The notes under the pieces: generated by a model
What the model saw: only the letters and a program-made list of their open reading frames with translations
Databases searched by the model: none
Told to the model about the DNA's origin: nothing
Program-made: the position numbers and the translations under genes
Origin: Pseudomonadota bacterium
Lineage (GTDB): Bacteria > Pseudomonadota > Gammaproteobacteria > Burkholderiales > Burkholderiaceae_C
Length of the DNA stretch: 26,522 nt
Direction of reading: 5' to 3'
Assembly: GCA_046046715.1 (NCBI GenBank)
Contig: JBJOJH010000206.1
Location: forward strand, 1 to 26,522
Shown here: positions 998 to 5,763 of the stretch, one piece after another
Layout of the letters: the number at the start of each line of letters is the position of its first letter
How positions within the stretch are numbered: the first letter of the stretch is position 1

Positions 998-2089
998 TCA
1001 CCCCATGGCCCTCTGGAGAAACCAGAAGGCGCCCAAAGCGATCGAGCCATAGGAGGCCAGGCGGGTAGCTTTGACGAGGCCCGCAAGCCCGCTCACTTGA
1101 CGTATGCCATGCATCACCAGTGCAGCAAATAAAGCCAGGGCAATCTGCCCCAGTTCAATGCCAGCATTGAAGCCTGCCAAGCTCAAGACCCGGCCTAGGC
1201 CATTTAGGCCCAAGTCGCTGAAGGCACCGGCGAGACCCAGCCCGTGAATCAAGGCGCAAGCGAAGACCAGGCTCAGTCGGATAGACAGCGGATGCTTTAA
1301 GCGGCGATGCGCCGACCAGCGGTCAAACACAGCCATGCCCACGATGGTCGCGGCAATGGCGGGTTCGACCAGGCTGGACGGCACCGTCAAGCCGTACCAC
1401 ACACAGGCCACCAGCGTCATGGCGTGACCCGCTGTGAAGCAAGTGAGAGCCAGCACCACCTGGCGCAGGTTCCATGCCGCAGCCAGCACCACCAGCAAAA
1501 ACAGCAGGTGATCCGCACCCGACAGCACATGGAACGCGCCGAGCCGGACTTGCTCAGAAAAGGTGACCCAGACCGAGGGCAACACAGCCCCCTGCGGGTG
1601 CTCCGGTGTCAGCGTGATGAGCTGAGATTGGGCACCCCGCGTGACCGAGATGTGCTCTGTTTGCTCCGCTGCGCGTATGCCAAACAAGCGCAATGAAAGC
1701 TTGAGTTCAGCGGCCTGCGCTGAAAGAGAAAAGCGTCCCAACACCACCAAGTGAGTAGATGGCGCAGAGGGGGTACTGTCAGGCGGTGCCGTGTTGAGCA
1801 TGACGCCTTCAAGTTCACTGTGCCCCTGGTCGCTTTCCAGTGCCACGCCCTGCTTGATTTGCGCCTCGATGCTTGCGCCATGAGCACGCAGTTCATTTGT
1901 TGATAGCAGGCCGTCGTGGTCGTCATCGAAGCCGGTCAAGGCCGATACTGGAAGCGACAGCACCATGTAGGCCCCATTGCCCACGATGTTTAGCGTTCCG
2001 TGCTGCGCCACCACCAGATGAGCATGGGCGGCTGACACCGCAGCCCATGCCAGCAGGCAGGCGAGCAGCCGCTGGCACAGGCGATTCAC
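998..2089 (-). CDS. HupE/UreJ-type (HupE_UreJ_2-like) membrane protein with N-terminal periplasmic domain (363 aa)
   Basis: Signal peptide ending AHA|H. Membrane domain with GAFHVLSGADHLLFL, CFTAGHAMTL and LIHGLGLAG motifs. The GTG start overlaps the YHYH stop (GTGA, 2086-2089). Confidence 0.82.
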   Translation of the reverse strand: MNRLCQRLLACLLAWAAVSAAHAHLVVAQHGTLNIVGNGAYMVLSLPVSALTGFDDDHDGLLSTNELRAHGASIEAQIKQGVALESDQGHSELEGVMLNTAPPDSTPSAPSTHLVVLGRFSLSAQAAELKLSLRLFGIRAAEQTEHISVTRGAQSQLITLTPEHPQGAVLPSVWVTFSEQVRLGAFHVLSGADHLLFLLVVLAAAWNLRQVVLALTCFTAGHAMTLVACVWYGLTVPSSLVEPAIAATIVGMAVFDRWSAHRRLKHPLSIRLSLVFACALIHGLGLAGAFSDLGLNGLGRVLSLAGFNAGIELGQIALALFAALVMHGIRQVSGLAGLVKATRLASYGSIALGAFWFLQRAMG

Positions 2090-3048
2090 AGACTGCCTTT
2101 CACGCAGCGCTGCAGGTGGGGGAAGGTATCAGTGGCGTAGTAGTGATAAATGCCATTGGGAAATTCGGGTGTGACGCCGGTCCGACCATTGCATTCGTCC
2201 AGATCGCCCAAGCCGGCCACGTATTCGTAGTCTTGCGTGAAGGTGCCCATCGCATAGGTCGTTGTGTCGGCTGGTCGATTGGCATCCGGCGTCGTCTTGG
2301 TGCGATAGCTGGACGCGACCACCTTCACCGCTGAGCTTGCGTCGGTTGCCACGGTGTAGCCATAGCGCGCGTAGATCGGAAAACCGTCAGCCGCCCAGCC
2401 AATCATGGTCATGGCCGGGTTTCCGTTGCTCAGCTTGGTGAGCAAGCCTTCTGGAATCCCGTGGTAGTGATACATGCCGTTGGGCTGCACGTGCGCGTTG
2501 TTGTCGTCCGTTCCCCACTTGAAGAATGTCTGGCCCATGGCCTCCAGATTCCAAGTGCCCAAAGACGGTCCCCCTTGTTGACAAATTCCCGTGTCACTGC
2601 AAGTACCCGCTGTTCCTGGGTCAAAGACGATGCCATTCAAAGCGATGCCAGGCTTGTCCATGGGGCCGACACGCGGCGTGACGACCGAAGTCGCGGTAGG
2701 TGTCAAGGTCACAGAGGCCGAGATGTTTTGTGCAGAGATGGTGTTGGGGTTGTCGGGGTTGGGGAATGTGCCCACGGCGTGATCTGGCAGGCCATTGGCC
2801 GTGATGGAGCGCAGTGTGCTGCTGCATGACCAGGTCGCCGTGGCGGTGGCATTGACCGACGCAGAACTATTGAACGCACTGGTGGCGTAGCCGCAGAGCA
2901 CGCCAGCCGTGCTGGTGCCCGTGGTGGTCGTCGTGGAATCACCGCCGCCGCCACATGCGGTCAACCCGAGCCCGGTCAGAATGGCTGCGGCGACCACTAA
3001 TAGGTGAGCATGGCGATGGCTAGACGAAAAGCTTTTAAACGTGTTCAT
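2086..3048 (-). CDS. YHYH-domain lipoprotein (320 aa)
   Basis: Lipobox LTAC followed by a Gly/Thr linker. Motifs DDNNAHVQPNGMYHYHG, IGWAADGFPIY, GDLDECNG and GIYHYY are typical of the YHYH family. Six further Cys residues. Confidence 0.88.
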   Translation of the reverse strand: MNTFKSFSSSHRHAHLLVVAAAILTGLGLTACGGGGDSTTTTTGTSTAGVLCGYATSAFNSSASVNATATATWSCSSTLRSITANGLPDHAVGTFPNPDNPNTISAQNISASVTLTPTATSVVTPRVGPMDKPGIALNGIVFDPGTAGTCSDTGICQQGGPSLGTWNLEAMGQTFFKWGTDDNNAHVQPNGMYHYHGIPEGLLTKLSNGNPAMTMIGWAADGFPIYARYGYTVATDASSAVKVVASSYRTKTTPDANRPADTTTYAMGTFTQDYEYVAGLGDLDECNGRTGVTPEFPNGIYHYYATDTFPHLQRCVKGSL

Positions 3049-3098
3049 GATGTTGTGATGTTGGTTGTGTTGTTTAAGGCCTGAGATGCATGCGTCTG

Positions 3099-3176
3099 CT
3101 ATTTGCTGGCATAGGCAAAGCGTTCCGTTTCGCTCACCATGCAGTCCTGGTTGGTGTCGGCCGGGGTTTTATCGCC
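3099..3176 (-). pseudogene. In-frame EF-hand-like coding remnant directly after the stop of the 99-aa protein
   Basis: Reading on past the TAA at 3179-3177 gives GDKTPADTNQDCMVSETERFAYASK-stop (TAG 3101-3099). DTNQDCMVSETE (3158-3123) fits the 12-residue EF-hand loop pattern except Cys for Gly at position 6 (TGC vs GGC). Confidence 0.45.
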
Positions 3177-3476
3177 TTACTGCTTGGGCGTTGTAGGACC
3201 GCCTGGAGGTGGGCCTTTGGGCTTGCAGGCCAGTGGCTTGCCTTCGGGGGCCCAGCATGTGCCAGTCACTGTGCCTTGCGGAGATGCAAAGCTGCATTCG
3301 GTGCCACTGCCAAGTGCCTTGCACGATGCCAGCGCCTCGGCGGGCGGTTTGGGGGGGCCGCCCTTGCCATCGGTGGTCTGAGCCGAAAGAGCGCAGCAGG
3401 CGGTCAAGGCGACGCAACAGAGGGTCAGGCTCATCACGCGGCCTAGGGGCATGGTCAAAATCTCACTGGCTTTCAT
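3177..3476 (-). CDS. Small exported Pro/Gly-rich protein with four conserved-looking Cys, unknown function (99 aa)
   Basis: Start placed at ATG 3476, which has GGAG 7 nt upstream (CCTGGAGTAAACCC-ATG). Hydrophobic signal region, then GGPPKPPAEALASC-x8-C-x12-C-x9-C-KPKGPPPGG. It is the 3' part of the 258-aa track ORF. Confidence 0.8.
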   Translation of the reverse strand: MKASEILTMPLGRVMSLTLCCVALTACCALSAQTTDGKGGPPKPPAEALASCKALGSGTECSFASPQGTVTGTCWAPEGKPLACKPKGPPPGGPTTPKQ

Positions 3477-3559
3477 GGGTTTACTCCAGGTGTGTCGGCA
3501 AGCACCTGCGTTGCCGTGCCTGTAGTGTGAAAAATCAATGTGGTGAAAATATGAGCAAG

Positions 3560-3613: not shown

Positions 3614-5080
3614 ATGCGCCTTCGACTTGCCCACACCCAAGCCCTTCTTTTGCTGTCGGCCGTGTTGCTGACGGTGCTTTGTATGGGGACCTTGAATGCG
3701 TGGAATCTGCGCAATGGCTTCTCCGACTTTTTGGCCAGCCGCGACGTCGAGCGACTTGAGACATTCGCAGCCCTGGTGTCAGAACGGGCCGAAGTGGCGG
3801 GCGGTCTGGACGCCTTGGCTGCCCAAGGTGTGGATTTGCACTTGCTACTGCGAGAATTTGGCCGGGCGCAGGGGATTCTTCCGCGCGAGTTTTTGCCACC
3901 CCGCATCCCCGGCCCAGGACCCAGAGGCTTCTTCGCTCCGCCCCCACCGCCACCCCCGCACATCGACAGCATTGATGCCTTCAAGGACCGGGTCGCGCTC
4001 TATGCCCCCAATGGCCAAGCGCTCTTAGGCAAAACGCTCCCGCCCGACGTAGGCGCTCATGTGGAAAGGCCTGTGTATGTGCAGGGCAAAGCAGTCGCGG
4101 TGATGCACATGCAGAAGCTCAAACCGGTGCCGGATGATGTGGAGGTCCGGTTCCTGACCTCGCAGTACCAAAGCATCGTGGTGGTGTCTGCTGTACTGTT
4201 GTTGGGCGCATGGTTGATTGCCCGATGGCTGGCCAGCCACTGGGTACGCCCGCTGTTAGAAATACAGGGCGCCACCCAACAGATTGCGCAGGGGGCGTTC
4301 GACACGCGGCTGAGTACGCGCCGGGCGGATGAGATTGGGGACACCATGCGCAACATCAACCGCATGGCAGAGGGGCTACAAGCCCTGGAGACCTCACGTC
4401 GCCGGTGGATTGCTGATATATCGCACGAACTTCGCACCCCCCTGACCGTGCTGCGCGGTGAAATCGATGCGCTGATGGAAGGCATCACTGCGATGTCGCC
4501 ACAGGCCCTGCTATCGCTGCGCGAAGAGGTGCTACAACTCAATGCACTGGTCGACGACCTGCACCTGCTGGCCATGGCGGATTTGCGGGCCCTGCCCTGC
4601 TACTTTGAAGACATCGACGCGGTTGCGCTGCTTGAAGGTATCGTGCAGCGCTTTTCACTGCGGGCGAGCCAACAAGGCTTGACCCTACGATGGGAGGGCA
4701 AGCCCACGACGCCGTTGGCGGTGCGCTGGGATGCAAAACGCATCGAACAACTGCTGGGCAATGTGCTGGACAACAGCTTGCGCTACACCGACGCACCTGG
4801 GCAAGTGGTGGTGCAAATTCAAAGCGACAACACCCGCGCCATCATCAGTATTGAAGACACGGCTCCTGGCTTGCAGCTTGACGACCTGACACGCATTTTC
4901 GAGCCCCTGTACCGGGCAGACCGCTCAAGAAGACGGGATGCGGGTGGCAGTGGCCTCGGACTGGCCATCTGCCAACACATTGCCCTGGCCCACCACGGCC
5001 TCATTCGGGCAGCAGAGTCCCAAATGGGAGGAATTCAAATTCTCATCGAGCTGCCCTTGATGGGAGACGTTGCAGCATGA
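3614..5080 (+). CDS. Sensor histidine kinase, BaeS-like (488 aa)
   Basis: Two TM segments, HAMP (DEIGDTMRNINRMA), H-box DISHELRTPL, N-box GNVLDNSLRY, EDTAPG, and G2 box GSGLGLAI. Confidence 0.93.
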   Translation: MRLRLAHTQALLLLSAVLLTVLCMGTLNAWNLRNGFSDFLASRDVERLETFAALVSERAEVAGGLDALAAQGVDLHLLLREFGRAQGILPREFLPPRIPGPGPRGFFAPPPPPPPHIDSIDAFKDRVALYAPNGQALLGKTLPPDVGAHVERPVYVQGKAVAVMHMQKLKPVPDDVEVRFLTSQYQSIVVVSAVLLLGAWLIARWLASHWVRPLLEIQGATQQIAQGAFDTRLSTRRADEIGDTMRNINRMAEGLQALETSRRRWIADISHELRTPLTVLRGEIDALMEGITAMSPQALLSLREEVLQLNALVDDLHLLAMADLRALPCYFEDIDAVALLEGIVQRFSLRASQQGLTLRWEGKPTTPLAVRWDAKRIEQLLGNVLDNSLRYTDAPGQVVVQIQSDNTRAIISIEDTAPGLQLDDLTRIFEPLYRADRSRRRDAGGSGLGLAICQHIALAHHGLIRAAESQMGGIQILIELPLMGDVAA

Positions 5081-5763
5081 CCACAGAAGCACCCAGCCGT
5101 GTGCTGGTCGTGGAAGACGACCGAAAGATATCGGAGCTGCTGCTCAACTATTTGCGAGCACAAGGGTATGAAGCGACGGCTGTCCACGATGGCCGTGTCG
5201 CGGTACAACACATTTCACAAACGCAGCCCGATGCCATCATCCTGGACTGGATGCTGCCGGGTCTGGAGGGTATCGGAGTCTGCAAGGCAGTACGCGCGTT
5301 CAGCGATGTGCCAATCCTGATGTTGACGGCGCGCGTAGATGAGCTGGACCGTTTGCTTGGCCTGGATACTGGCGCCGATGATTACGTTTGCAAGCCTTTT
5401 GCACCGCGCGAGGTGGTGGCTCGGGTGCGCGCTCTGCTGCGCCGGGCTGGCGGCAAACCTAAGACGTCGCCCACACCTTGGGTGGTGGAAGACGCATCCT
5501 TCCGTATCAGTTGGCTGGGCCAGTGGCTGCCTTTGACCCGGATTGAATTCATGATGTTCAGAACCTTGCTGTCGCGCCCAGGGCGGGTCTACTCGCGCGA
5601 CCAGTTGCTGGCGAGCGTGCATGACAGCCAACGAGACATCAGCGACCGGGCGATCGACACCCATATCAAGAACCTGCGCAAGAAGATTCAGGCAGTAGAA
5701 CCCGCAAGTGACTGCATTGCCTCGGTCTATGGGATTGGGTACCGGTTTGATCTACCTGAGTGA
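5077..5763 (+). CDS. OmpR/PhoB-family response regulator, BaeR-like (228 aa)
   Basis: Receiver domain (VLVVEDD, ILDWMLP phospho-Asp, CKPF) plus winged helix (DRAIDTHIKNLRKK, VYGIGYRF). ATGA overlap with the kinase stop. Confidence 0.94.
   Translation: MTTEAPSRVLVVEDDRKISELLLNYLRAQGYEATAVHDGRVAVQHISQTQPDAIILDWMLPGLEGIGVCKAVRAFSDVPILMLTARVDELDRLLGLDTGADDYVCKPFAPREVVARVRALLRRAGGKPKTSPTPWVVEDASFRISWLGQWLPLTRIEFMMFRTLLSRPGRVYSRDQLLASVHDSQRDISDRAIDTHIKNLRKKIQAVEPASDCIASVYGIGYRFDLPE

Follow-up and report, generated by a model that had tools for sequence, protein, structure and literature searches.

The spacer between two genes of a conserved operon, at positions 3045-3176 on the minus strand of the DNA analysed here, was very probably a non-functional remnant of the 3' end of a separate EF-hand gene of about 170 amino acids. 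It is an ordinary pseudogene fragment and not a cryptic extension of the 99-aa protein encoded upstream of it, which we here name A99. An earlier note on the window (the whole stretch of 26,522 nucleotides) had drawn attention to an EF-hand-like tail behind the A99 stop codon and had proposed, among other readings, that it was the stump of a deleted EF-hand gene. This proposal was borne out, as intact syntenic EF-hand genes aligned codon for codon with the tail.

The relic and its intact counterparts

The genes surrounding the spacer were the following.

3180-3476, minus strand: intact A99 gene, the first gene of the operon, encoding a 99-aa exported protein with four Cys; TAA stop at 3179-3177.
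2086-3048, minus strand: gene of a YHYH-family lipoprotein (Pfam PF14240, E 4e-68).
998-2089, minus strand: gene of a HupE/UreJ_2 membrane protein of the same operon (Pfam PF13795).
3614-5763, plus strand: histidine kinase (3614-5080) and OmpR-type response regulator (5077-5763), divergent from the operon (Pfam, synteny).

Synteny indicated that the two-component system adjoining the operon was conserved in related loci. According to tblastn gene maps, the gene order in related freshwater Comamonadaceae/Burkholderiales was two-component system, A99, an optional gene, EF-hand gene, YHYH, HupE-like and MipA. The response regulator and the histidine kinase were located on one strand, and A99, the EF-hand gene, YHYH, HupE/UreJ_2 and MipA on the other. 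By Pfam, the layout of the window was that of its relatives, save that a mere 128 nt separated A99 from YHYH.

The operon is modular. An extra gene of about 1.2-1.3 kb was present between A99 and the EF-hand or YHYH gene in L008 (5300-6566), L010, L033, L083, L097, L013, L093 and L099, while L017, L020 and L090 had a MipA-like gene instead. A second YHYH copy was seen in L017, L043, L076 and L109. The N-terminal part of HupE/UreJ_2 contained an intact canonical EF-hand-type loop of its own (D-D-D-H-D-G-L-L-S-x-x-E, 1927-1892 on the minus strand), and this loop was kept in about 30 related loci, including loci that had no separate EF-hand gene.

The earlier note had suggested looking for a separate EF-hand gene at homologous loci, and such a gene was found: 16 related Comamonadaceae/Burkholderiales loci encoded an intact protein of about 170 aa with EF-hand domains. 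The gene had a start codon and an upstream spacer of its own, and YHYH was located directly downstream in all 12 loci where the next gene was covered. It followed A99 directly in L011, L012, L075, L076, L089, L052 and L053, and was separated from it by one extra gene of about 1.2 kb in L008, L010, L033, L083 and L097. The encoded proteins were 169-176 aa long and scored above the cut-offs of Pfam EF-hand_1, _5, _6 and _7; their nearest solved relatives were eukaryotic EF-hand sensors, which were only distant. These proteins (L089 464-982, L011 5326-5835 and others) started with Met-Val-Ser-Pro-Ile followed by a Pro run, and had no obvious N-terminal signal peptide. All the other products of the operon were exported or membrane-bound.

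In the window, the following elements of the relic were recognised.

3045-3176, minus strand: the whole stump of the EF-hand gene, with 44 codons that share one frame (tblastn, HMMER, DNA and protein alignments).
3165-3176, minus strand: the twelve bases after the A99 TAA, which by eye look like the Ala-Asp-Lys-Ser codons that L101 has before its loop.
3123-3158, minus strand: what is left of the last EF-hand loop, 12 codons, with Gly>Cys at loop position 6 (TGC 3143-3141) and Thr>Met at position 7 (3140-3138).
3099-3101, minus strand: TAG within the relic; CAG (Gln) in the six intact relatives of equal length.
3045-3047, minus strand: TGA at which the EF-hand gene originally ended; it shares the frame of the tail and overlaps the YHYH start codon (3048-3046) as ATGA.

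Minus-strand translation of 3090-3479 gave the A99 protein with a signal-like N-terminus, four Cys and a C-terminal PKQ, then the TAA at 3179-3177, 25 in-frame codons and the TAG at 3101-3099. It reproduced all 25 residues of the tail that the earlier note had read in the A99 frame, including the EF-hand-like loop. The ligands D, N, D, S and E at positions 1, 3, 5, 9 and 12 and the Val at position 8 gave the ligand and hydrophobic pattern of a 12-residue EF loop, with Cys in place of the Gly of an EF-hand at position 6. The note had attributed this Cys to a single-base change from GGC to TGC, which was right because all nine intact relatives (9/9) held a Gly codon there. Both the Gly and the Thr codon at loop positions 6 and 7 were unanimous in the six equal-length relatives, and L101, outside this set, had Met at position 7. 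Because the same six genes had CAG where the window had TAG, the latter arose by nonsense substitution and is not where the gene originally stopped. Accordingly, the interval 3099-3179 given in the note did contain the tail but was too narrow, since the relic continued for 17 codons past the TAG to the TGA at 3047-3045. The stump thus corresponded to about the last quarter of the EF-hand gene, and what remained of it now formed the A99-YHYH spacer. The same ATGA overlap with YHYH was present in the intact loci L011, L089, L033, L008 and L097.

The first hint of homology came when the spacer was searched as DNA against 200 genomes of the family; this gave only short matches of 16-36 nt, some of them within EF-hand genes. 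A scan of related loci for EF loops then identified the separate gene of the same operon, whose last loop and following residues matched the tail in L011 at 18 of 21 positions. In tblastn, residues 132-160 of the L011 EF protein matched the stump at 76%, and intact EF proteins searched against the window's whole own genome matched this spot only (E about 1e-6). The HMMER match of the EF family to the stump had an E of 2.3e-9, and the stump aligned with residues ~130-170 of the intact proteins. At the DNA level, comparison with L089 gave a 76-nt block with 68 identical positions and a 54-nt block running into YHYH with 48, at an alignment score of 117.6 versus a shuffle mean of 0.7 (sd 5.7). 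Identity reached up to 84% over 120 nt (L089, L097). Moreover, the 39 codons from Pro-Ala-Asp-Thr-Asn to the stop aligned without any indel with L011, L012, L089, L010, L033 and L097. No other copy of the EF family was found by tblastn or HMMER in the organism's own assembly, a MAG that was 73% complete.

The Pfam EF-hand models (PF00036, PF13202 and PF13499) gave no match for the 25-aa tail, the 125-aa readthrough product or the 43-aa stump. The earlier note had proposed scoring the tail against EF-hand HMMs after restoring the Gly, and formally the tail failed (13.2 bits versus a Pfam cut-off of 25.9). Yet this test was too strict because the fragment had only 25 residues, and homology was found by other means. 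EF-hand pairing was also lacking in the stump, whose upstream EF-hands and start codon were gone and which was bounded by stops on both sides. Thus, although its origin is a bona fide EF-hand gene, the relic fails the tests for an EF-hand domain in model score, loop Gly, pairing and translation.

Taken alone, the loop pattern is only mildly unusual: its relaxed form had 18 occurrences across all six frames of the 2.18-Mb genome, compared with 4-13 in shuffled genomes, and roughly 0.1-0.2 occurrences are expected per 26-kb window. These shuffled counts, together with the failure of the tail against Pfam models, were what could be said for a chance match in non-coding DNA. Such a match was nevertheless vanishingly improbable in view of the 84% DNA identity, the 39 codons colinear with syntenic EF-hand genes and the shared stop/start overlap with YHYH. 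It is this homology, and not the bare pattern, that settles the EF-hand origin of the tail.

The A99 protein and its stop codon

The family search, in which the 125-aa readthrough product was the query against 5.8 billion proteins, gave 111 A99 homologues. Nearly all of them were 99 aa long, covered exactly the first 79% of the query and shared a common PKQ-stop end in the alignment. The few longer ones had N-terminal extensions or unrelated C-terminal ones. An EF-hand tail fused to the 99-aa protein, which the earlier note had suggested searching for among homologues, was found in none of the 111, and a search limited to longer proteins gave no A99-EF fusion either, its sole yield being one 185-aa form with an N-terminal extension. 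Furthermore, the A99 stop was conserved across 54 genomic loci in which the in-frame sequence 3' of it was unrelated to the tail of the window.

These observations refuted another suggestion of the note, namely that an ancestral A99 of about 125 aa had recently lost a C-terminal Ca2+-binding motif by nonsense mutation at 3179-3177. In favour of such a truncation, the tail is in frame with A99, and in HMMER the alignment of the EF Pro/Gly linker can run on past the TAA and reach the C-terminal, Pro-rich part of A99. However, this extension consisted of low-complexity Pro/Gly sequence, and the tail was homologous to the end of a separate gene with its own start codon and upstream spacer. Along with the uniform PKQ-stop end of the homologues, the 54 loci with a conserved stop and the lack of any fused form among longer proteins, this made a truncated A99 extremely improbable.

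The shared frame also prompted the idea of readthrough into a Ca2+-binding isoform, which the note itself had ranked as less likely. A functional peptide could come from programmed readthrough or from a 13-codon internal ORF (ATG 3140 to TAG 3099), as the Thr>Met change makes an ATG with AGGA four bases upstream. We considered either route highly improbable. The second in-frame stop, TAG, breaks the relic, and the loop no longer has its invariant Gly. An unpaired EF-hand is not a stable domain, and the tail would be just that. In addition, no RNA structure that would promote readthrough was detected (z-score 0.5), the frame after the stop was not conserved in relatives at the 54 loci, and the substitution pattern looked neutral, being flat over codon positions. 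The A99-YHYH spacer contained no promoter- or terminator-like site, no Rfam family and no stable or unusual fold. The stump of the separate EF-hand gene is presumably untranslated.

The nearest A99 relative seen in protein space, P0001, was 94% identical and was followed by P0002 at 78%; a metagenome scan gave nothing closer than 74%. Both A99 and the EF protein were rare in the 40 nearest reference genomes, and the A99/EF protein search had no match in a genome of the same genus (93% complete).

The 3' end of A99 in the window (3183-3215, minus strand) encoded Gly-Pro-Pro-Pro-Gly-Gly where most homologues had Asp-Ala-Pro-x-Gly-x. It contained a 17-nt string identical to part of the Pro/Gly linker of the L011 EF-hand gene (L011 5640-5660), which could be a low-complexity codon coincidence or a small gene conversion. 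This likeness is also what lets the HMMER alignment of the EF protein run across the TAA. We rejected this 17-mer as a recombination junction, given that the A99 3' end was colinear with, and of equal length to, other A99 genes and the junction was located 3' of the TAA.

Decay and loss of the EF-hand gene

At six sites, the six intact genes of equal length agreed with each other and the window differed, including Gly>Cys (3143), Thr>Met (3139), Leu>Phe (3119) and Gln>stop (3101). Compared with intact genes, the stump had diverged evenly at all three codon positions (5/7/7, 7/7/8 and 8/8/8), whereas differences between intact genes fell mainly on third positions (4/0/5, 1/2/9 and 5/2/11). The compared pairs were not independent and the counts were small, so this comparison is supportive and not a formal test. 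The substitutions in the stump look neutral, which suggests that it evolved under relaxed constraint.

In this lineage, a deletion of roughly 400-450 bp very probably took away the A99-EF intergenic region together with the start codon and some 125-130 codons at the beginning of the EF-hand gene. Judging its size by comparison with L011 and L089, the deleted part would have included the other EF-hand motifs and the Pro/Gly linker. The surviving part of the EF gene probably has its left edge in bases 3165-3176, and because of the likeness of these bases to L101 the border of the deletion would be at the A99 TAA or within about 12 nt of it. The last loop and the C-terminal tail would thereby have been joined to the A99 stop codon, in frame by chance (a 1-in-3 event). 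The relic would then have drifted, acquiring Gly6>Cys, Thr>Met, Leu>Phe, Gln>TAG and other changes.

The deletion might instead be an artefact of assembly or binning, the organism itself having an intact EF-hand gene. The MAG is indeed fragmented (366 contigs, 73% complete), Pro/Gly-coding repeats are present in both A99 and the EF linker, and the 17-mer is common to the window and L011. However, the junction was not at this 17-mer, and flanking synteny was perfect along the 26.5-kb contig. Moreover, a collapse in assembly is unlikely because it would not create the independent point changes (TGC and TAG) or the flat pattern over codon positions. We therefore regarded an artefact as very unlikely.

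Among the loci in which the A99-YHYH interval was covered, the EF-hand gene was intact in about 12 and absent from about 37. On a kinase tree (a quick IQ-TREE maximum likelihood tree), the EF state required at least 4 changes. The window belonged to a clade of ten with 97% support that included one EF-intact locus (L076) and six EF-less ones, and L076 and the EF-less L078 were sisters on this quick tree. Since the gene was distributed patchily across the tree of the operon, it is a dispensable accessory that was lost repeatedly, and the window represents one such loss caught half-way.

Two Limnohabitans-type loci had A99-YHYH spacers of 117 nt (L019 2583-2700 and L100 3300-3417). The first ~35 nt of these spacers were ~69% like the A99-EF spacer and the first EF codons of L089, and the last 20 nt resembled the EF 3' end (17/20). 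They may be independent stumps left by a different internal deletion, though their alignment scores against the EF gene were no better than those of shuffles.

The loss might also have affected the translation of YHYH. A stop codon that overlaps a downstream ATG is a classic arrangement for translational coupling. Where an intact locus had the ATGA overlap, the 30 nt preceding the start of YHYH were A/C-rich and had no Shine-Dalgarno sequence, whereas EF-less loci such as L006 and L078 had a site of the GGAG/GAGGA type before YHYH. This difference suggests coupling in the intact arrangement, so that stop-start coupling to the EF-hand gene probably drives the translation of YHYH in intact operons. 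The window (3020-3050 region, compared with L006, L078 and L041) retained the leader without a Shine-Dalgarno sequence but had lost the upstream translation, and the stump now would serve only as an A/C-rich leader of this kind. As a result, YHYH may be translated less efficiently here, or by Shine-Dalgarno-independent initiation. In many relatives the EF-hand gene was fully deleted, unlike the stump of the window. It could be imagined that the stump was retained as the only translation-initiation region of YHYH, the dead coding sequence having been co-opted as a regulatory leader that tunes YHYH expression, perhaps through the 13-codon mini-ORF. We considered this unlikely.

Significance and comparison with known systems

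For annotation, the spacer should be treated as a pseudogene fragment and should neither be joined to the 99-aa protein nor read as a readthrough isoform. The direction of change was loss, and what was lost is an accessory EF-hand gene, patchy in its occurrence within a conserved uncharacterised operon (A99, YHYH, HupE-like and MipA) under the control of a two-component system. The link to an EF-hand gene gives mild support for a Ca2+-related role of the operon, and this organism is probably without its soluble EF-hand component. Otherwise, the case is one of routine gene decay.

The closest known counterpart was the operon-linked EF-hand family itself (L011, L012, L075, L076, L089, L097 and others; EF-hand_1 PF00036, EF-hand_5 PF13202 and EF-hand_7 PF13499). 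The stump was homologous to its members and syntenic with them, and it had the same length from loop to stop and the same ATGA overlap. It differed from them in that the start codon, the partner EF-hands and about 125-130 codons of the N-terminal part were missing, in having Cys for Gly6 and an internal TAG, and in giving no score with EF models.

Among described bacterial proteins, the nearest analogues of the intact gene product were small Ca2+ proteins of the EF-hand type such as EfhP (PA4107) of Pseudomonas aeruginosa and the periplasmic CaBP of Caulobacter vibrioides (PMC9132961, PMC11559002, PMC13171946). The intact relatives of the stump may be likened to them, since they too are bacterial, small and equipped with canonical EF-hand loops. 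Their being encoded beside a two-component system and envelope proteins could be counted as a further likeness. The intact relatives differ in having no obvious N-terminal signal peptide and a long Pro/Gly linker, and the copy in the window is dead. The type III effector family XopAW (NCBIfam NF041410) shares EF-hand motifs with the intact relative L089. Membership in this family was rejected, as L089 scored 44.1 bits against a cut-off of 120 bits and the resemblance was limited to the EF-hands.

Finally, the stump resembled gene remnants that deletions have left within other bacterial operons: it was likewise truncated at the 5' end, carried nonsense and missense changes, showed relaxed constraint and was flanked by intact genes. 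The sole twist compared with the usual remnants was that it was in frame with the upstream gene and still carried the start region of the downstream one.
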